Part shown: positions 3,577 through 63,375 of the stretch, in pieces
Layout: every line of letters starts with the position of its first letter
How positions within the stretch are numbered: the stretch's first letter is position 1
From: Paecilomyces variotii
Lineage: Eukaryota
Assembly (NCBI GenBank): GCA_004022145.1
Contig: RCNU01000013.1
Reading direction: 5' to 3' (one strand)
DNA length: 64,000 nucleotides
Position numbers and translations under genes: made by a program
Notes under the pieces: model-generated
Database searches by the model: none
Seen by the model: only the letters and a program-made list of their open reading frames with translations
What the model was told of the DNA's origin: nothing

Positions 3577-6500
3577 ATGTCCATGAAGAGACTTATCCAT
3601 GACAAACTTCGCATATCTTCAATACGTTCCCAGCGCGGCTCAGTAACTGATGGCGAGACACAGGCTGGACCGCACTACGACCGAGTGAGACCGCAAGGGA
3701 TATCTGTGCTTGTTTCTGCTACATCTCGTATACTCACGCCCATAATAACGACACCTGAAGCAAGCAAAGATGACCTTTGGATGAAGGCGCTACGAATCCT
3801 TTCTGCAAGGGATAAAGGCAATGGAGATGTTCTGAAGAAAATTCTTTCAGAGACCAGCCGTTTCGATGGATTTACAGATATTCTCATCAGAGAGGTCCGG
3901 GCCAAGAGAGATATCTGCAAAAGAAAGAAATGGACTTTCGAGTTCAATGGTCGCACCATAAGTCTGGGAGAACAAGCAGAAAAGGTAATTCAATGGCTAG
4001 ATAAAATCAAAGCCGTTGGTGATGTTACGGTCAATGTCGACCCTATACACGCAGGACTTCCATGGGCCGGAATCAGGATGCTACTTATAGTAAGAATCTC
4101 CATGGCGTTATAAGTCCATTTTGAATAACCGAATGCAAGGCAGTGACTTCCGAGTCCCATATGATGGGGACTCTCCTGGTTGGCCTCGACAAGGTTCTGT
4201 ACCTGATCGATCGGTGCAAAGTATACGAATTACTCTATCCGCATAATTCTCTCATAGAGGATAGTTATCAAAATTTTGAATCCGCACTAGTTGGTCTATA
4301 TGTCGTCATTCTTGACTTCTTGGCCGTGGCAGTTCAAACTTCCAAGAACAATGCCATCAAGAGGACCCTTACAGCATTCTGGTCATTGGACTGTATCAAT
4401 AAATATGATACTCGCTTTCAGGAACTTATGACGCGCGTTGAAATCGAAGCTCATAACTGTGACCGTCTTTACAGCCGACACGAGCGACTCGTCTCTCAAC
4501 AGCAGACGAGAGATTTGAAGCGTATACTTAGGGATCTTGAACAGTTGAATTCCACCCAAGGCCAAATTGAAATTGTCAAAGATAGGATTTCTGGCATCTG
4601 GGAATTCCTGGATGGCGAAAAGAGGCACGAAATGCTCTTATGGATATCAGTAATTCCATTTGAAGACCATCACAGGATGGCAAAGGAAGGACGGACAGAG
4701 GATACTGGGACATGGCTTTTGCGCCACGATCAGTATGTAGAATGGCAATCGTCTCAACAGTCTACGATATTATGGTTACATGGAATCCGTAAGTCTGCAC
4801 AACTCTCTTGGTCGAGATTGTCAATGAGATTCTGACTTCTGGATAGCGGGAGCTGGAAAGACGAAGCTTGTTTCCCAAGTTATTGACAATCTCCAGCATG
4901 ACTTATGTGAAGGGGCTTTGGTCTACTTTTACTGCAACCGCAACGAGGAATCTCGCCGAAAACCAGAGCAGATATTGCGCAGCTTTATCAAACAACTTTC
5001 AATATCGAACGATAAAAAGGCTATTCACCAAGCATTTATCAATTCTTACGACAAAAGGTGGCAGACTGGATTTTCCTCGAGAGATCCAAGTCTGGACGAA
5101 TGTGAGAAACTCATTACCGATCTTGCATCGACATATCCAAAGGTGACATTTGTCCTGGATGCTCTAGATGAGACCGAGACACGCTCTCGGAAGAGGCTTT
5201 TTGATTTTTTCAATTACCTTATCGAACATGTCATCAACGCGAAGATATTCATATCCAGCCGACGTGACGGAGACATCAAGCGCCAACTCGAAAGAAAAGC
5301 AAATATTAGTATCGAAGCAACGGACAATCATGATGACATAGCGAAGTTTGTCGCGGAGAGAATTTCAGAAAACGAAAAGGATCGACAATATCCTATTTCC
5401 GAAAGTTTGAAATCCGAGATCATCGATACACTACTTCACAAGAGCCACGGAATGTAAGTTCCAACCGGTCCCTTGTTCTCTGTTCCCGCTAAACATTTAA
5501 AGGTTCCAGTGGGCGGCCTTACAAGTCGACCAAGTACTATCGTTAGACGTGGAACAAGATATATGCGATCGTTTAGGAAAGCTGCCCACCGATCTAAAAT
5601 CAACCTACGATGAGATATATGAATCGATACAGACAAAGGGCTCAAAAGGGAGCGAAGCTAAAGTCGCTACTCGCGCCTTTCAATGGGTTATGGGTGCTCA
5701 AACTCCTCTATCCGCGAACGCACTACTTGCTGCTGTGTGGCAGGAACCTGGCAACAATAGAGTTAGCAAGCCTCAGCTTGACATTCAGTTTGTTCTGAAT
5801 GCTTGCCATAATCTTTTAGTCATAGATCCTGTGACAAGGAGATGTTACTTTGCCCATTTATCTATACGGGAATATTTCGAAGAAAATCATCCACTTATTG
5901 GGCAACCCCATATTGTACTGACCAAAGTTTGCTTATTGTTACTCATTGATGACAATGTGAAAGCCGAGGAATGGCCAGAACCCCCGCTTAGCTCCAGCGG
6001 CACTATTTATAAGCTTACTGAGTATGCCGCGATCTACTGGATAGAACATTTAAGAAGATGTGACAGCATCTGCAGTGACGGCGAACTGTCTTGGCTTACA
6101 AGTCAATTCTTTGGTTCTGTCACAAGAAGCAGTTCGGCTTATATCCACTGGTTTGAATATTGGGCCGTGGACGAAGGACTTTTTACATGGGATATAATCA
6201 ACCAGCTGCAACCGATCTCCAACCCTTTGCTAGCAATATGCAGATTTGGCCTCTGTAATGTTCTACAATGGTTGTGGGAGTCGGACTGTGATCCAAATCA
6301 AGTCAATGTCAATGGGGAATCACTGCTTCTACTGACAACCCTCGGTTCAGACCTCGAACTGGTTCAAATGTTGCTGGGTCTGGGAGCAGATGCTAATAGG
6401 CAATCGGCTCGCGGAGATTATGGCACCGCCCTCGCAGCGGCAGCATCGACGGGATCTCTGGAGATGGTCCAGTTACTATTAGATGCAGGGTCGAACGTGA

Positions 6501-7462
6501 ATCAGGTATTACCGTCTGCACGCTATGGCAGTGCCCTAGCAGCAGCAGCATCATCGTCTCCGGGATCTGTAAAGATGGTCCAGCTGCTATTAGATGCAGG
6601 AGCCGATGTGAACCAGAAGTTGTCTTGCGGTGCCTTTGAGAGCGACCTTGCAGCAGCAGCACATGCAGGAAGCATGGAAATTGTCCAGCTACTGTTAGAT
6701 GCAGGTGCCGACGTCAACCAAGTGCTCTCTTCCGGAGATCACGGCAACGCCCTAGCAGTAGCATTATATATGGGACGTGTGGAGATGGTCCGACTGCTAT
6801 TAGATGCAGGGTCGGACATGCATCAGGTATTACCCTATGCACGCTATGGAAGTGCCCTAGCAGCAGCAGCATATTCGGGGCCTGTGGAGATAGTTCAGCT
6901 TCTATTAGACGCAGGAGCCGATGTGAATCAGAAGTTATCATGTGGGTACTATGGCAGCGCCTTGGCTGCAGCAGCATACGGGGGATCTGTTGAGACGGTT
7001 GAGCTGCTGTTAGATGCAGGGTCAGACGTGAATCAAGTCATACCCTATGGACGCTATGGAAGTGCCCTAGCAGCAGCAGCATATACGGGGACCACGGGTA
7101 TCGTCCAGCTGTTATTAGACGCAGGTGCCGATGTGAACCAGAAGTTATCATGTGGGTATTATGGCAGCGCCCTGGCCGCAGCAGCATACGGGGGATCCGT
7201 AGAAACGGTCCAGCTATTGTTAGACGTGGGCGCCGATGTGAATCAGGAGCTATCGTGTGGACATTATGGCATGGCTGTGGTAGCAGCAATAGATGGCTGG
7301 GATGGAGATATGGCTGTAGTAGAAACATTGTTGGATGCAGGAGCAGACATCAGTCGACTACATACCCACTTGGAGCGGACGCTGGTACTGCGCTCACAGC
7401 AGCCTTGCGAAATAAGAGCCAAGAAAGGTGATGCAGTTAAGGCTCAATGGCCTTTGGTATAA
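3577..7462 (+). CDS. Fungal NLR-like protein: helical N-terminal domain (NWD/NACHT_N-like), NACHT NTPase, ankyrin repeats; about 1242 aa
   Basis: Exons 3577-4089, 4140-4788, 4847-5453, 5503-7462 splice in frame. Walker A WLHGIP/GAGKT spans intron 2; Walker B FVLDALDE; IFISSR; GMFQWAALQ; about 10 ankyrin units. Confidence 0.92.
6352..7350 (+). repeat. Tandem array of about 105-bp ankyrin-coding units with high internal conservation, including a 210-bp higher-order duplication
   Basis: Unit consensus xEMVQLLLDAGADVNQxLxxGxYGSALAAAAxxG. The string acgctatggaagtgccctagcagcagcagcatat occurs at 6841 and 7051, 210 bp apart. Confidence 0.92.
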
Positions 7463-28000: not shown

Positions 28001-28637
28001 GGAGCACTGCCTCGGCCACTATATCTGCGCAGTTGCTACTTCTGGAGTGTCTGCTTTGATCATATATAGGTGGGAATCAGTAGCTCAATGTTGCTTGTTC
28101 TATAATACCCCTTTATATAGGGTGAGTAGTAGCATTTCCCACCCGTGAAACACACCACATCTCAGCTGCTATGACGGCCTCAATCTTGCCAAAATCTGAC
28201 AGATACTGAGTTTTTCATCTATTCGGGCACTCTCTCTGGGTGCTCGTAGGTGCCTTGTCTTTTTTATGTAAATCAGTGGCCGCGAGCCCTTGTACCTTCG
28301 AAACACGGCTCAGCTTATAGTCTGGATAGACAACCACGTGCACACCATGTTATCTGCCTAGGCTGGTTGCCTTTTCAGCCTCGTGGGTATTCGCGAGGTT
28401 CACCCTTCCAGTTTTGTATCCCATTGGATAGTACATACATACATCCTCTTCACAGTAGCCGTGTAGGGCTGAGATCGCTTACTTCAGCTGACAGGCCAGC
28501 TAGAACTATATCGCGACAGCGGTTATAGTGGTATACTCACTTATTTATACCAGGCAAGTTGACCCTTCATGACTTGAGTCAACTATGTAAATAACAGAAT
28601 CAATTAGGGAATCTGTTCATATTCCAGAATTCACACA

Positions 28638-29405
28638 ATGGCCACTTCATCACCAGCCGCTCCGTCTGACGACAGCAAGCCCCAGGTTCAACCCAACGCC
28701 AAAAAGGACACAAAGAACAAAGGACGTTCCAGCAGCACAGAAGCTTCCCTTCCAGATCTTTCGCAAACAGCTATGAACGAGCATGTGTCCATTTTCCGAC
28801 ATGCCGTCGGCATTAACTCGCAGCCCCCGTCCTACTCGGGCAGCAAGCTAGAGGAAGGTCAGAGACTAGCCACAGGCATATATAAAGAAGTTCTACGAGA
28901 AAAGAATACACGACGCAGGCAGTATTGGGCAGTCAACCTGCTTGTCTACTGCTGCCACTTCGCCCAGATCATTATCAGCGCCTCGGTAACCGCACTGGGG
29001 CCGTCGTCGAAGAATTACTCTACAGTGCTTACGGTGCTGGGGGCCGTCAACACTGTTATCGCGGGCACTTTGGCGCTGTTGAATGGACGAGGTCTGCCAG
29101 ACAGGCTGCATAGGGATGAGATCGAGTTCCGAAAGATACAGGACTGGGTCGAAGAAACAGAATCCCTGATAGCAGCTGGTATTATCGGTTCCGATCGGGA
29201 GCAGGTTGGCCATCTCATCGAGGCAACGTTCAGGAAGTACAACGCAGCGAAGGCGACTTCAGAAAACAATAAGCCCAGCTCGTACATCAAGCAGCAGGCA
29301 GAAAGGGGAAGGAGTACTGCTGGAGCAGACGACGACTTCCTCGAAGATTCCACCAATTCTGATGGAAATACGCTCGTCAAGCTCAACGTGCCAGGGGTAC
29401 ATTGA
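28638..29405 (+). CDS. SLATT (SMODS/SLOG-associating 2TM effector) fungal-family protein
   Basis: Intronless 255 aa. GIY..V...Y, two TM helices QIIISASVTALG and TVLGAVNTVIAGTLALL, then GLPDRL and a helical tail ending NxPxSY. Confidence 0.78.
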   Translation: MATSSPAAPSDDSKPQVQPNAKKDTKNKGRSSSTEASLPDLSQTAMNEHVSIFRHAVGINSQPPSYSGSKLEEGQRLATGIYKEVLREKNTRRRQYWAVNLLVYCCHFAQIIISASVTALGPSSKNYSTVLTVLGAVNTVIAGTLALLNGRGLPDRLHRDEIEFRKIQDWVEETESLIAAGIIGSDREQVGHLIEATFRKYNAAKATSENNKPSSYIKQQAERGRSTAGADDDFLEDSTNSDGNTLVKLNVPGVH

Positions 29406-42348: not shown

Positions 42349-43659
42349 ATGGCTACTAGTGCTCCCCCGACCTCGACTGGCAGCGCCAAGGTGGATGCTG
42401 TGGCCCAGGAGGCCCAGATGAGCGGTCTTCAGCTCTACTCCAGATTCGCCTTCGCTGGTGCTGTCTGCTGTTCCGTCACCCACGGTGCTCTCACTCCCGT
42501 CGATGTGTAAGTCGCCCTGCGAACATGGAACCCATTGCGACGACCGATTCCCGCGGCGTGTCCGGTGTCAAGGCCCCAACCCGTCCGGTCGACCGCATCC
42601 GTCCCGTCCAAGAGCTCGAAAACTGACGAAGTCGTGTCTGTACAGCGTGAAGACCAGAATCCAGCTGGACCCCGTCACCTACAACCGCGGTCTGATCGGT
42701 GGTTTCCGCCAGGTCATCCAGAAGGAGGGTGCTGGCGCTCTGCTGACTGGTTTCGGTCCTACCGCCGCCGGTTACTTCCTCCAGGGTGCCTTCAAGTTCG
42801 GTGGTTACGAGTTCTTCAAGCAGCAGTTCATCAACCAGCTCGGTTACGAGACTGCTTCTAACAACCGCACTGCCGTCTACCTGGGTTCTTCCGCTCTCGC
42901 TGAGTTCTTCGCTGATATCGCCCTCTGCCCTCTGGAGGCTACCCGTATCCGTCTGGTCTCCGAGCCCACCTTCGCCAGCGGTCTCGTCAGCGGTTTCGGA
43001 AAGATCCTCAAGAACGAGGGTATCGGTGCTTTCTACTCCGGATTCGGTCCCATTCTCTTCAAGCAGTAAGTGGCTCCCTGTGCGCTGCATATGTCATGCA
43101 TAAAAGAAAACAAAATACTAAACGTGTCCTCAGGATCCCCTACACCATGGCCAAGTTCGTCGTCTTCGAGAAGGTTGCTGAGCAGGTCTTCCGCCGCGTC
43201 GACAAGTCCACTCTCTCTGACGGTGCTATCACCGGTGTCAACCTCGGATCTGGTCTCGTTGCTGGTTTCGCCGCCGCCATCGTTTCCCAGCCCGCTGACA
43301 CTATGCTGAGCAAGATCAACAAGACCCCCGGTCTCCCCGGTGAGGGTACCGTCTCCCGTCTGATCAAGATCGGTAAGGAGCTCGGCCTCCGTGGCTCTTA
43401 CGCCGGTATTGGTGCTCGTCTCTTCGTAAGTTGATCCCTTCCTGGCCTTTTTGGGCCTTTCTTTTCTGCACATTGACCAGTCATTAACAACCAATCGCGA
43501 ATGGCAGATGGTGGGTACCTTGACAGCAGGACAATTTGCTATTTACGGAGGTAAGTTTCAATTTTATGAGGTTTTTGTGGTGGTTTATAGAGGACTAACG
43601 GAGGTATAGACATCAAGCGTCTGCTCGGTGCCACGGCCGGTGTGGAGATCGCCAAATAA
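42349..43659 (+). CDS. mir1: Mitochondrial phosphate carrier
   Basis: [79 protein letters not shown]; four introns; strong codon bias. Confidence 0.96.
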
Positions 43660-58280: not shown

Positions 58281-59146
58281 CTCGTTGCGCCCGCCGCCAA
58301 TTTGAAGTACAGTTGATAGGTGATCAACAAAGTTCATTGTTCTATCTATATATACTCTGAAGCTCCGGCCAATCAATCGTGTGCGAGTAGGTAACTCCAG
58401 CTCGTTACTACAAATAACCGGCCTAGAGGTAATACACTTCTATTCGTCCGTTCCTTAGTGCGTTGACAAGCAGTCTCAATCCATTGCTTTTTGCACTCCA
58501 TAAATACTCTAGTCTTCTATGGGATCCCCAAATGGCGCCTCATGAAAGCCAGCTGGTGACTAATGGAGAATTCCACCACCATATGATAATCTACGTTACC
58601 ACCCCTATGATTACAAGTTCCGACACGTCGAGATTGAAGCGTTGGGTCCTCATTCGACCGCTTTGGAGATCCGAATCGCCAAAGGGATGCATGTTCGAGG
58701 TAGATCAGTTGCATGTATACCATACATTAGCTCACTCAATCACAAGCAAACAACACATTGGGACAGACAGCGAAAAAAGAAAAGACGCCCATTAATAATC
58801 GACCAAACCCCCCCTCTATCCGCTCTCTCAATGCAAGACACTCAAGTCTAGACGAAGATCGAAGCTCGAACAACCCCGCCCTTACAAAGCAGCAGATATG
58901 GCGTGCAACGAAAACTCGCGCAAAACTACGCACTTGGTGGTGATTGGCCCCATATTTCCCATACCAGTACGTCAGTCGGACCCAGAGGACCTTGGAGGCT
59001 TGGACTATCCCCCTCTTTAAAGAGTCCGCAAGATGCCCCTCATGGAGGGGTAGACGATCTGTTTGACCTTTTTCTGTTCTCTTCTCGAGTTTCTATACCG
59101 ATTTACTAGGTCTTTTTTCTTGTCTGATATCAATATCTGTGACAAT

Positions 59147-59942
59147 ATGGCTTCTACGACATATACTCTTCCCCCTCTTCCGTACGGATACAATGTAAGC
59201 TACTCCTGAAACCCTCTGCCGGCTCTCCGGTGTCAGAGAAGAGTCAGCGAGGATGTGGAATCGGACGCTGATGGATGTATTTCCAGGCCCTGGAGCCCGT
59301 GATCTCACAGCAGATCATGGAACTGCACCACAAGAAGCATCACCAGACTTACATCAACAACCTGAACGCCGCATTGGCCTCGCAGGCCGCGGCTACTCAG
59401 GCCAACGATGTGCCCCAGCTGATCTCCCTTCAGCAGAAGATCAAGTTCAATGGTGGTGGACACATCAACCACTCCCTCTTCTGGAAGAACTTGACTCCCC
59501 CGGGAACTAAAGAGGCCAACATCGATGTGGCTCCTACGCTGAAGAACGCGATCGTCAGCCGATGGGGTTCGGAGAAGGCATTCACTGATGCCTTCAACGC
59601 TGCTCTTCTCGGTATCCAGGGTAGTGGATGGGGATGGCTTGTTGCCAACAAGCCCGGCGGAAAGCTGGAAATCATCACCACCCACGACCAGGATCCCGTC
59701 ACGTCGCCGGATATTCCGATCTTTGGCGTCGACATGTGGGAGCACGCCTACTACCTGCAGGTTAGTAATTCCCTTCTTCGTTGTAGGGGTTATCCAGCAG
59801 CTGCTAAATGATTATATTTCAGTACCTGAACAACAAGGCCGGTTATGTGGAGGGTATCTGGAAGATCATCAACTGGGCCACGGCGGAAGAGCGATACAAT
59901 AAGGGCATCGACAGCTCTGCCATCTTGAAGGCCTCAATCTAA
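59147..59942 (+). CDS. Manganese superoxide dismutase without mitochondrial presequence (cytosolic Sod3-type)
   Basis: MASTTYTLPPLPYGYN/ALEPVIS..LHHKKHHQTY, FNGGGHINH, QGSGWGWL, DMWEHAYYLQ/YLNNK; introns 59195-59286 and 59761-59822. Confidence 0.96.
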
Positions 59943-60086
59943 GCAATTATCATGAGAACGACGGCATTAAACCAGAACATGAGATCAGATCAATGTAGTC
60001 TAAACGCCGTATCCATCGCTTAATGAGTGATAAAAAATAAACACACGATTCTAGCAAATGCAAGCAAACCCATCCAGTACGCCCAT

Positions 60087-60604
60087 TCAATTATAACCGA
60101 CAATTCCTGTACCAAGCATAGAATTTTGCGATAGTAGCGTCACTTGGCGTCCGAGGATGCCACTGTCGGAGATATCGAGGTCCAATTTCTCTGGGAGATC
60201 GAATTGCATCTCTCTTGAACCGCTCGTGTCGAGGGTGAAGGAATGGAGAGGTCGTGTAGACATTGTCGACGTCAAATCTCCATATCGCCTGTCATTTATT
60301 ATGTTAATTAGCAAAGAGCATTCTCTCATGATTTCCCCCGGCCTAGAGGTTATGGTTGGATTTATGCTTACTCTATCCGCAGATCGACATTCTTGCAATT
60401 CTGCAGGGCCTTCAATGTGCTTGGGTCATCGAATCTGAAGACCGCCCTTGTCCTTATTACATCGTTCGCTGTCTGCGTATTGTGGAAGAACAGAGTGTAT
60501 GGATTAAGCGTAGGTGATGCCGATGACCCCCCTGTGATCTTGGGTGGGAACATGACTGCGATTCGCCCTCCAGCGCTTGGGCGGCCAACTCCGTCGCAAC
60601 ACAT
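60087..60604 (-). CDS. Cu/Zn-SOD/CCS-fold-like protein lacking His metal ligands (144 aa)
   Basis: Exons 60604-60372 and 60288-60087 splice in frame (GTAAGC...GCTAAT..CAG). N-terminal MCCDG, LRIERYGDLT, and SGILGRQV...LGTGIVGYN. Confidence 0.72.
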
Positions 60605-61589
60605 GGTTACCTTCAAAAAGTATGAAAGTTATTGAGTAGATATCGATGTATACAAGACCAAGCCAAGTGGCAAGTTATAATTGTATGGATTAACAAAGAC
60701 ACAACTACTCTTCCACGGCAGGGGTCTCTGCCATATATACCTACCTAATCTATGTATGAAAACAGGGTACCCCGGGGGCGAATCGAGGGGGTCTGCCCCG
60801 AGGGTCCTTCATGTCAGCAATTGAGCGGTATCGAGCACAATTTCCAAGTCCTGGTCGGGCATCGTGGAGTTTTGTCTTACGCGACAGACTAAGATGGCTC
60901 GCGATGTTGCTCAAATATGCGCATGGGTATCCACTAGAGCGAGTTATTTGGTGGGTCAGCGCGGATCACGAAACACCTCGGCTCGAGGAGGTGATTAATT
61001 AATTAGGAGCCTCCATTCAATAATGTTGTATAGACGGATTTGTAGAATGATTAAGAGCATGGTAATATCTTCATCGTGTCTGAATAACTACACGGGCGAC
61101 CTACAATGAGGTTGTGAGTACCTTCGGAGGCAAAATGTATGTACAGTTACTACAGTACAACAATATTGACTCCCAAGGTTGATGGATCTCCGCTAAACTC
61201 TAAGCGGAACTTAAGAGACTTATCCATCTGTCATTTCCTTGTATTGCAAGAAGCGATGAATTATCGGATTCGAACTACGTGGAATGAATTAGATGTGCTA
61301 TGTTTTGTCATCATGCGGGAGCAACATTGATTTCGGATATGATGGTATAACTATGGCGCCAATATAACCAACAGAGCCTCGCCTCTTCATAGAGGGATAT
61401 GTTTATCTAGCCAATCAACGCACAATAACAAGGAAACCGACTAATGTAAACCGTCAAAAATCCACTATTTGTTGCGTTCATCTGTGAAACTTTTGCCCGC
61501 CGGGGAACCAAGGACACCTATAGAACGGCCTGCATTCTACTAGAAGTCATTCCAGCTCAGCCAGCGACATCTGAACTCTAATACAGGAT

Positions 61590-63169
61590 TTATAGGTGGT
61601 ACTGCTCCGGACTCGTAACTTCCATGCCCTGTCTCTTCCATATTCCTTCCACGCCCATATCTTCTTGACCACTGATCTCACAGTTAGATTCGTCCTCCTG
61701 TAGAGGGGATGATAGTTATGTAGGTGACTTACTCATCTTTCCATGTGATGGTCGGCTCCGTGTCTCCCTCAGCCTCGTTGGGGTCGCGGAAGATGACATT
61801 CTTTTTCTTTATACTGGTCAGTATATGGCGAGACAGTTTCTCTTCCTGAGGATAACGTACCAGACCCAAAGTGAGATGGATTGCGCGAGGTCCCCACGAG
61901 AACTTCTCATCCGCGCTTCGTCCCTCGATCAGAGCTTGGATGTTCTTCGCCACGACAGCTGCCTGCGCTATTCCCGGTCTTGCTGCTTTGTGCGAACCAG
62001 TATCGGCGATGTCACCAACAGCAAAGAAGTTGGGGTATTTCTCATCCGAGAATTGCATCGTGGGTTTCACGCGGATATACCCATTCTGAGGATTAATTAT
62101 GGAATCCGGTGCGGAGGCAGACAATCCCTTTACAAGCTCATTATTAGGACTCTGGCCCGTGGCCGGAATGACGAACCCTGCTGGGATCCCTGTTCCGTTT
62201 GTGAGTTGGACTTGGAATGTGCTACCATCATTAGGGAAACCGTTTGATGGAATAACAACACGTGCACCTGTGATGAGTCTTTCCTCCCCCAAGAATGATA
62301 AGTCAGCTATTTTTCCTAGGTTATAAAAACTCGGAATCTTGGACGTACCGGACTCCTAGCTCATCGAACCTCTTCTGGACGAGACTATGGAACTTTTCAT
62401 GAAACTGTGGCATCACTCGCACCCGAGACTGCACCACAGTAACCTCCTTGTCGGGGTAATATTCTTTCAAATCCGTCGCCATCTGCACCCCTACGGCTCC
62501 GCCTCCGGCGATGACGATTGACTTTGCTCGCTTGATCTCAGACTGGTACTGTCTCAAGTACTGAATAGAAGACTGTTTATCGTGAGAAGGCATGTTCCCC
62601 GGTGGAGACAGCACTGTTCCGGTTGCGATAGCGAGATATTCGAAGGGAATCTCATTAGATCCCTGCCATTCGCGGTCGACCTCCACATGCTGAGGTTGCA
62701 CTGAGAGGACGCGGGCCTGTACGACAGCATGTGCGGATGGATCGGGGGTAGCGGCGAAGAGGTTACTGTATGGAATGAAGGCTTTATGCTCATGATCTGG
62801 GACAATTGAGAATCGAGGCTAGATTGGCCCTTCAATCAGTATCATGGACTGGGGGTTCCTGAACAACTGCAGAAGGAGGCTTACGAAAGCAAACAGGTGG
62901 TTAAAGTGACTATGTGGCTCGATCAACAGCACCTGAATAACTCATTAGCATCATTCACAAGACATGAAATGCGGAAACATTGCCGACCCTGTGCGATTTC
63001 GGGATAATTCTCGCGAGTTCCTGAGCTGTAGCCTATATGACAATGTATCATCTCGTTAGCAACTGAATGCTATCCAAGCAAGCGCGGAATAATTCCGTCT
63101 ACGCGTCAAACTCACTCGTCCGACATAGGACCCTCCAACAACGACAATATTCTTAATCAAAGGTGTCAT
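61590..63169 (-). CDS. AIF/AMID-like pyridine nucleotide-disulfide oxidoreductase
   Basis: KNIVVVGGSYVG, VLLIEPHSHFNHLFAF/PRFSIVP, YLAIATGT, IVIAGGGAVGVQMA, FFAVGDIAD, IHLTLGL; multiple introns; stop at 61590. Confidence 0.92.
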
Positions 63170-63356
63170 TTTCGTATATTCAAGAACAGTCGATATTTCT
63201 CTTAATCGTAAGCATGTAATGATACTCAGGAAAATGAACAAAACCGTCCCCTTTATACGCCCTAGGGTCATCGTTAAGACCGAGCTCCGCGGGTCATGGA
63301 CTGAACTGTAGTCTCGGAGATATCTTTTGCCACGATTCGACAGTCCCTCCCCATAG

Positions 63357-63375
63357 TTATCAGATTATCTGATAA
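63357..63375. promoter_or_regulatory. Palindromic pair of ATCWGATAA (SreA-type GATA) sites
   Basis: TTATCAGAT-T-ATCTGATAA, a perfect inverted repeat about 190 bp upstream of the AMID-like ATG. Confidence 0.65.

Follow-up and report, generated by a model that had tools for sequence, protein, structure and literature searches.

In a 64,000-nucleotide stretch of contig RCNU01000013.1 from Paecilomyces variotii (NCBI GenBank assembly GCA_004022145.1), hereafter the window, a gene for a manganese superoxide dismutase (MnSOD) on the plus strand faces a spliced gene on the minus strand, hereafter the partner, whose product is a candidate derivative of Cu/Zn superoxide dismutase (SOD1) without the metal-binding residues of that enzyme. 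The two genes are convergent and their stop codons lie 144 nt apart, close to the 145 bp given in the original prediction, a note made from the sequence alone that had singled out this pair as a possible metal-switch module. The components of the pair are the following.

59147..59194, plus strand: MnSOD exon 1, 16 codons, with the ATG at 59147
59287..59760, plus strand: MnSOD exon 2, 158 codons, with Sod_Fe_N and most of Sod_Fe_C (Pfam)
59823..59942, plus strand: MnSOD exon 3, with the stop codon TAA at 59940-59942
59943..60086, no strand: spacer between the convergent stop codons, 144 nt, with AATAAA on the plus strand near 60037
60087..60288, minus strand: partner exon 2, 66 codons plus the stop codon TGA at 60089-60087, encoding RYGDLT...GILGRQVTL...GTGIVGYN
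60289..60371, minus strand: partner intron, 83 nt, GTAAGC...ACAG, with a CTAAT branch-like site
60372..60604, minus strand: partner exon 1, with the ATG at 60604, encoding MCCDGVGRPSAGGRIAVMF...DLRIE

The MnSOD introns are bounded by GT..AG, and the spliced translation of 213 amino acids is identical to the P. variotii protein held at NCBI (P0224). Its membership in the Fe/Mn SODs is clear from Pfam (Sod_Fe_N, E 1.6e-26; Sod_Fe_C, E 6.6e-23), and the top PDB match of exon 2 is 1kkc (E 8.6e-74), which we take to be the Aspergillus fumigatus MnSOD allergen Asp f 6 (Sod3/SodC). Because no more than a few residues precede the conserved domain in the protein, there is no space for a mitochondrial presequence, and both the N-terminus and the closest relative predict an enzyme of the cytosolic type. 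The P. variotii protein thus resembles A. fumigatus Sod3/SodC in its match to 1kkc, in the missing presequence and in a putative zinc-regulatory site at a similar promoter position (see below), and differs from it in bearing the label 'mitochondrial' at NCBI, which is probably a transferred name. With only 144 nt between the stops an overlap of the 3' ends is likely, and the 3' untranslated regions of the two genes probably abut or overlap; a bacterial-type terminator was not found in 59943..60086, which is uninformative for a fungus.

The spliced partner encodes 144 amino acids without an internal stop and contains all the strings that had drawn attention to it, i.e., LRIERYGDLT, SGILGRQV...LGTGIVGYN and the start MCCDG. 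The splice junction (LRIE before and RYGDLT after the intron) is confirmed because residues 18-144 are identical to the NCBI 'hypothetical protein DTO164E3_6521' (P0004, 127 amino acids), and it is further supported by relatives in which uninterrupted open reading frames (ORFs) bridge the intron position. These ORFs (P0123, P0146, P0177, P0178 and P0220) come from read-assembly sources, on contigs of about 1-1.9 kb, and would represent spliced transcripts, in which case the gene is probably expressed in these relatives. The models P0013, P0020, P0029 and P0011 stop or read through at '...RIE', and P0011, P0195, P0209 and P0214 have an in-frame insertion that follows '...RIE' directly and coincides in position with the window intron; models with this insertion look like retained-intron or mis-spliced forms, and these four were excluded from the family alignments.

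The NCBI annotation begins the partner at Met18; an ATG lies further upstream at 60604, preceded closely by an in-frame stop. The N-terminus obtained from this upstream codon, MCCDGVGRPSAGGRIAVMF, fits the family consensus MCGxxxRPSxGGxIAVLFP, and an MC start is found in 147 of 154 full-length-like relatives, the other seven of which look like truncated or misstarted models. Since the MC start is conserved in the family, we place the true start at the ATG at 60604, which indicates that the public annotation misses an invariant cysteine (Cys2) together with the predicted first strand (60553-60604).

The partner belongs to an unnamed family that is found across the Pezizomycotina. A profile built from the window protein and a relative from Aspergillus hancockii, scored against 1.84 billion representatives at 50% identity, recovered 111 relatives at E<=1e-3, of which 40 reached E<=1e-10 and seven E<=1e-30. 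A second, word-based search with a 42-sequence profile gave 178 clusters at 90% identity, the best 120 of which include Aspergillus, Penicillium, Paecilomyces and many Xylariales, as well as Dothideomycetes (Venturia, Hortaea, Phyllosticta, Delphinella) and the pezizalean Rhizina. Within these best 120 clusters all names but one are 'hypothetical', 'uncharacterized' or 'unnamed'. The single exception is a protein of 144 amino acids from Aspergillus udagawae (P0118), labelled 'probable mannosyl-oligosaccharide alpha-1,2-mannosidase 1B', an evident misnomer. No published description of the family was found in the literature searched (ligand-less SOD-like proteins, P. variotii SOD, Aspergillus sod3/copper, AN0784-AN0786/Afu1g14550), nor did six locus tags of family members occur there, which agrees with the description of the partner gene as uncharacterised in the original prediction. 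We conclude that the family is real, conserved and undescribed.

Family proteins are 128-177 amino acids long, and conservation was counted over 146 full-length sequences, numbered according to the full-length relative P0005. Met1 and Cys2 are present in every sequence (146/146), as are G110, G113, R114, G130 and G133; nearly invariant are G68 (145), R6 and G10 (144 each), I64 (143), D69 (141) and L70 (134), and the C-terminus reads [YWF][ND]. At position 3, where the P. variotii protein has its second cysteine, Gly (110 sequences) and Asp (33) prevail, and this cysteine is therefore not conserved. The likeness of the N-terminus to a paired-cysteine copper motif, on which the original prediction had drawn, thus holds for Cys2 and fails for Cys3, and since Cys3 is unconserved the family has no CC or CxC motif. 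Position 65 (Glu in 81, His in 59 sequences) divides the family into two cleanly separated subfamilies. The E-type (81 sequences), with I-E-[KR]-[YH]-G-D, includes the window protein, and its named members are Eurotiales; the H-type (59 sequences), with I-H-x-x-G-D and the C-terminus A-E-G-I-I-G-[YW]-N, has named members from Xylariales, Dothideomycetes and Rhizina. Class II amidotransferases, which use an N-terminal cysteine as nucleophile, were considered and set aside, as Pfam gave no support for such an assignment of the family.

The relationship to SODs emerges from structure prediction. An AlphaFold2 model computed from a 142-sequence alignment headed by P0005, which is 49% identical to the window protein, has eight strands and one helix (mean predicted local distance difference test score, pLDDT, 87.2; predicted template-modelling score, pTM, 0.82). 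Foldseek matched it to 57 PDB entries at E<=1e-3, and the best 40 of these 57 are all Cu/Zn SODs of plant, animal, fungal or bacterial origin, with a probability of 1.00, template-modelling (TM) scores of 0.42-0.63 and sequence identities of 8-17%. In the viral library BFVD, four matches reached a probability of 1.00, among them the SOD of a baculovirus, a 'SOD-like protein' from swinepox and, with a TM of 0.67 on the target, an 'inactive Cu-Zn SOD-like virion protein' of a poxvirus. A protein language-model search, which we treat as a lead only, ranked clusters bearing Sod_Cu first among the named ones (0.82 and 0.80). The SOD fold proposed in the original prediction is therefore largely borne out, by the P0005 model.

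At the sequence level, the metal site of SOD1 is gone. The partner has two histidines in 144 residues (positions 41 and 93; cysteines lie at 2, 3 and 70), and the family median is four (range 1-8). As the copper site alone requires four histidines according to a recent review (PMC13017621), a canonical Cu/Zn site in the partner is impossible; the ligand set of four copper histidines and the zinc His/Asp residues is absent, as the original prediction had maintained. A SOD1-type disulfide is likewise missing because the last strand has no cysteine. In the P0005 model the loops equivalent to IV and VII comprise about 15 and 7 residues, strands 7 and 8 being separated by about 7 residues with no loop VII electrostatic loop, and an extra helix lies between strands 3 and 4. 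Residues 1-10 form a tail of low predicted order (mean pLDDT 61) that carries Cys2 just before strand 1, and in SOD1 strand 1 adjoins the subunit interface.

Although the metal ligands, the disulfide pair and any profile match to Sod_Cu are lacking, several motifs recur in the same order as in SOD1: the family reads I-[H/E]-x-x-G-D-L-T where SOD1 has H-x-H-x-x-G-D-N-T, followed by I-I-G-R and by a C-terminal G-[IV]-[IV]-G (G-I-I-G-[YWF]), in which the invariant Gly133 and the following aromatic residue are matched to Gly150-Ile151 of SOD1. The GDNT tetrad and the hydrogen bonds between Gly51 and Ile151 are described as the core of both SOD1-SOD1 and CCS-SOD1 recognition (PMC6383938), and the motifs common to the partner family and SOD1 would thus belong to the subunit (dimer) interface. 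The same source gives Gly as near-universal at this interface position in SOD1 and Ala in CCS (Ala231 in human CCS; PMC6383938). Because the family has Gly in 146 of 146 sequences at the C-terminal G-x-x-G, it is SOD1-like and not CCS-like at this interface.

Several results weigh against this structural reading. The window protein as annotated (P0004, from the NCBI start and thus without strand 1) gave a model that is good in itself (pLDDT 82.3, pTM 0.74) but has no Foldseek match at E<=1e-3; its best match is human SOD1 (E 1.6e-2, TM 0.49), and SOD1 accounts for 10 of the 38 matches listed, among them a monomeric form with loops IV and VII deleted, the remainder being generic beta-sandwiches. 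For P0005 itself, TM scores are moderate and identities as low as stated above. No Pfam match at E<=10 was obtained with the window partner pieces, P0004, P0005 or 42 family members, and none of the 111 relatives matched Sod_Cu at E<=0.01; the only Pfam matches among these 111 were those of a long, unrelated repeat protein and a weak match to Big_6. Single-sequence phmmer searches of the PDB found no SOD, profiles of 42 and 142 sequences run against it found none either, and hhalign returned a probability of 0.4% against Escherichia coli SodC, a bacterial enzyme and the only Cu/Zn SOD compared. Finally, the mapping of family motifs onto SOD1 follows motif order and predicted strands without a printed structural alignment, and, of the SOD1 residue strings compared, GDNT, Gly150 and Ile151 are those taken from a cited source (PMC6383938). 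The fold check named in the original prediction (AlphaFold and Foldseek) was hence positive for P0005 and weak and mixed for P0004, and the profile methods were negative. On balance we consider that modelling gives good support to a SOD-like fold in the family, and hence in its member in the window, and that common descent of the family from SOD1 is likely.

Among known SOD1 derivatives, domain II of CCS, notably in the Saccharomyces cerevisiae form, offers a SOD-fold domain without a copper site that docks on SOD1. The partner differs in standing alone: it is a single domain of 144 amino acids with no HMA or other Pfam match, and lacks both the ATX1-like domain I (MxCxxC) and the CxC-bearing C-terminal domain III. 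Together with the family Gly at a position where Ala is near-universal in CCS (PMC6383938), this speaks against the permuted CCS suggested in the original prediction. Fungal Cu-only SODs of the SOD5 type and the animal CSRP resemble the family as SOD1 derivatives without a zinc site or loop VII (PMC13017621); these proteins are extracellular and most retain the copper histidines, whereas the partner has no copper histidines and, with an N-terminus (MCCDGVGRPSAGG) that by eye shows no hydrophobic signal-like stretch, is apparently intracellular. The nearest functional precedent is found in the poxviral inactive SOD-like proteins (leporipoxvirus decoys and the orthopoxvirus virion protein), which are likewise catalytically inert SOD homologues, though viral and recognisable as SODs by sequence, whereas the partner family is made up of cellular proteins of fungi that have diverged much further. 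Some poxviral SOD-like proteins keep zinc ligands. Those of leporipoxviruses are reported to bind CCS and to lower cellular SOD1 activity (PMC7605207). The SOD1 derivatives named in a 2026 review on the subject are limited to CCS, Cu-only SODs and CSRP, and the parts of that review covered here do not mention a family of this kind (PMC13017621).

Linkage of the partner to MnSOD was judged from NCBI locus tags and contig sizes in both protein searches. Four species have both proteins serially tagged in one assembly, and in all four the tags are consecutive:

Paecilomyces variotii: MnSOD DTO164E3_6520, family member DTO164E3_6521
Penicillium macrosclerotiorum: MnSOD N7462_005839, family member N7462_005840
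Penicillium chermesinum: MnSOD N7468_002063, family member N7468_002064
Aspergillus nanangensis: MnSOD FE257_001333, family member FE257_001334

In addition, the longest contig is of equal size for both genes in 15 of 17 species with comparable assemblies, the two mismatches being Penicillium capsulatum and Penicillium verhagenii, and several of the shared contigs are small (95, 224, 320, 359, 377 and 417 kb). Left out of the 17-species comparison were Aspergillus wentii, Penicillium coprophilum, Aspergillus flavus and P. variotii, whose rows came from different assemblies. Because the tags are adjacent and the contigs match, the pair is conserved across the Eurotiales, the one order that the linkage evidence covers, so that the synteny with cytosolic MnSOD named as a check in the original prediction holds in four of four checkable species of that order. 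This conservation may reflect function or a 144-nt convergent spacer that is hard to break. In A. fumigatus, the locus following sod3 is given as msdS, AFUA_1G14560 (PMC6070888). As a guess from its label, the misnamed A. udagawae protein hints that a family member sits between sod3 and msdS in section Fumigati.

The original prediction had further pointed to two motifs in the partner promoter, here considered as candidate copper-responsive sites. The promoter elements considered for the two genes are the following.

60832..60839, minus strand: TGTGCTCG, cited in the original prediction, agreeing in 7/8 positions with the MacA site TGTGCTCA
60907..60913, plus strand: TTGCTCA, also named there
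58985..58999, minus strand: ZafA-type ZR-like site GCCTCCAAGGTCCTC, with the CAAGGT core intact and a single mismatch in the flanks, -162..-148 relative to the MnSOD ATG
60758..60809, no strand: partner promoter stretch, with a weak ZR-like site at 60758-60772 (core intact, three flank mismatches)
60765-60779 and 60795-60809, no strand: ZR near-matches in which a single mismatch breaks the essential core

Both copper-type motifs are present, at the density expected by chance: TTGCTCA was found seven times in the window (10.6 expected) and TGTGCTCR, which covers TGTGCTCG, five times (4.5 expected). Neither is an exact copy of the MacA site, given as TGTGCTCA (PMC6514546), and the MnSOD promoter has neither of them, so that the copper reading of the promoter is not sustained. 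The premise of a copper-linked switch between SODs is itself reasonable because reciprocal regulation has been reported in Pseudogymnoascus, a filamentous ascomycete in which copper withholding lowers SOD1 and raises cytosolic MnSOD (bioRxiv 10.1101/2025.03.28.646060).

A zinc connection comes from A. fumigatus, in which sodC/sod3 (AFUA_1G14550) is described as being controlled directly by ZafA: its promoter bears ZR sites at -123 and -160, and zinc limitation raises its expression 1698-fold, whereas that of the Cu/Zn SOD gene, sodA, falls (PMC6070888). Using the ZafA ZR consensus DYYVYCARGGTVYYY with its essential core CARGGT as given in that source (PMC6070888), seven core-intact sites with at most one mismatch were found in 64 kb, and therefore the probability of meeting one by chance is about 2% for a given 200-bp stretch; the site upstream of MnSOD is one of these. 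By the criteria set out in the same source (PMC6070888), no qualifying ZR site was found in the partner promoter. Elements common to both promoters are limited to short repeats at chance level. The only regulatory lead, drawn from the promoter sequence and by analogy with A. fumigatus, thus appears to point to zinc and not to copper, and a zinc- or metal-sparing role for the partner beside MnSOD is possible.

Other observations on the window are listed here for completeness. Its sole exact match to the ZR consensus, GCTGTCAAGGTACCC at 43513-43527 on the minus strand, lies just past 42916-43431, the last Mito_carr ORF detected in a mitochondrial-carrier gene. A direct repeat of 16 nt, CCGGCCTAGAGGT[A/T]AT, occurs at 58418-58433, about 720 bp upstream of MnSOD, and at 60338-60353, inside the partner intron; the copies are identical in 15 of 16 positions, and such a pair is expected by chance in 3.5 kb with a probability of roughly 7%, by a rough estimate. 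The gene upstream of the partner (61732-63364, minus strand) encodes an AIF/AMID-like pyridine nucleotide-disulphide oxidoreductase (Pyr_redox_2), so that three redox-related genes stand in a row, and a second Pyr_redox_2 gene of the window lies at 1279-2181. An NLR-like gene (4828-7459; NACHT/NPHP3_N followed by ankyrin repeats) and a gene for a SLATT_fungal-domain protein (28608-29402) are of fungal immunity type and unrelated to the SOD pair.

Taken at its most general, our proposal, which we hold with moderate confidence, is that the partner derives from the Cu/Zn-SOD barrel, has lost the metals and the catalytic activity and acts via protein contacts. The family would have kept the eight-stranded barrel, shortened loops IV and VII and lost the Cu/Zn ligands and the disulfide; it would have retained a SOD1-like interface, made up of G-D-L-T, I-I-G-R and, at the C-terminus, G-I-I-G-[YWF] with the Gly typical of SOD1, and gained the invariant Cys2, carried by a flexible stretch of about 10 residues ahead of strand 1. 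Because a SOD shape without metal residues is combined with preserved interface motifs, we infer that the partner acts through contacts and not through catalysis, superoxide dismutation being an implausible mode of action for it. As a pseudo-enzyme it could form a self-dimer, or dock on immature SOD1 or its chaperone, and Cys2 would be available at that interface for thiol or metal chemistry.

The most serious competitor of this proposal, somewhat unlikely in our estimate, is that the two genes have no functional link, the partner being an independent small beta-sandwich protein and its position an inherited microsynteny. The 144-nt convergent spacer offers scant room for a rearrangement breakpoint, microsynteny is generally high within the Eurotiales, and family members are known from Xylariales, Dothideomycetes and Pezizales too, outside the order from which the adjacency is documented; moreover, no element common to the promoters was found beyond chance-level repeats, and the other neighbouring genes are unrelated. 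Against such an accident stand the persistence of the adjacency from Paecilomyces to Penicillium and Aspergillus and the kinship in fold to the other cytosolic SOD, which would make a chance neighbour a notable coincidence. A functional tie could also take the form of a zinc-sparing module, which we consider unlikely, in which ZafA would induce MnSOD while SOD1 is repressed, and the pseudo-SOD, itself co- or counter-regulated through overlapping convergent 3' ends, would deal with SOD1 that lacks zinc or keep SOD1 from maturing. The ZafA-dependent induction of sodC/sod3 with the accompanying fall of sodA (PMC6070888), the core-intact ZR-like site upstream of the MnSOD ATG, seldom met by chance, and the probable 3' overlap all fit this scheme, which is opposed by the absence of a qualifying ZR site from the partner promoter.

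The module envisaged in the original prediction, in which the partner is a permuted CCS that binds Cu(I) via its CC pair and coordinates a switch from SOD1 to MnSOD through Mac1/MacA-type sites, now seems very improbable. It can appeal to the SOD-like fold of the P0005 model, to the conserved adjacency and the invariant Cys2, to the reciprocity of SOD1 and MnSOD in Pseudogymnoascus under copper withholding (bioRxiv 10.1101/2025.03.28.646060) and to two 7/8 matches of MacA/Mac1 type 228-309 bp upstream of the partner ATG; yet Cys3 is replaced by Gly or Asp in most of the family, an ATX1-like domain is missing, the interface carries Gly and not the Ala typical of CCS (PMC6383938), and the promoter motifs are inexact, at chance density and not found before MnSOD. 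Least probable of all, and extremely so, is that the N-terminal cysteine serves as an oxygen- or ROS-sensitive (reactive oxygen species) N-degron like that of plant MCGGAI-type factors. An M-C start in all 146 full-length members and a tail that is predicted to be flexible would suit such a role, but among fungi N-terminal cysteine oxidases are described from chytrids only, as far as the cited source extends (PMC10092093).

Within the preferred reading of a metal-free pseudo-SOD1 that works by contact, a more specific and quite unlikely version can be formulated. Like the poxviral decoys, the protein would dock on nascent SOD1 or CCS by way of the GD(L/N)T and C-terminal G-x-x-G interface, and Cys2 would block, reverse or redirect the maturation of SOD1, thereby sparing zinc and copper at the switch to MnSOD, of which the convergent pair, with its overlapping 3' ends, would be the genomic form. 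Metal-less SOD1 derivatives have repeatedly proved to be regulators, as illustrated by CCS and the poxviral decoys. If the proposal is true, the family would constitute a fourth class of SOD1-derived proteins beside CCS, the Cu-only SODs and CSRP, and a candidate for the handling of SOD1 in moulds under zinc or copper scarcity, which would bear on nutritional immunity against Aspergillus. If instead the association with MnSOD amounts to synteny only, a conserved 'hypothetical protein' of the Pezizomycotina still gains a predicted fold, a corrected start codon and a set of testable residues.

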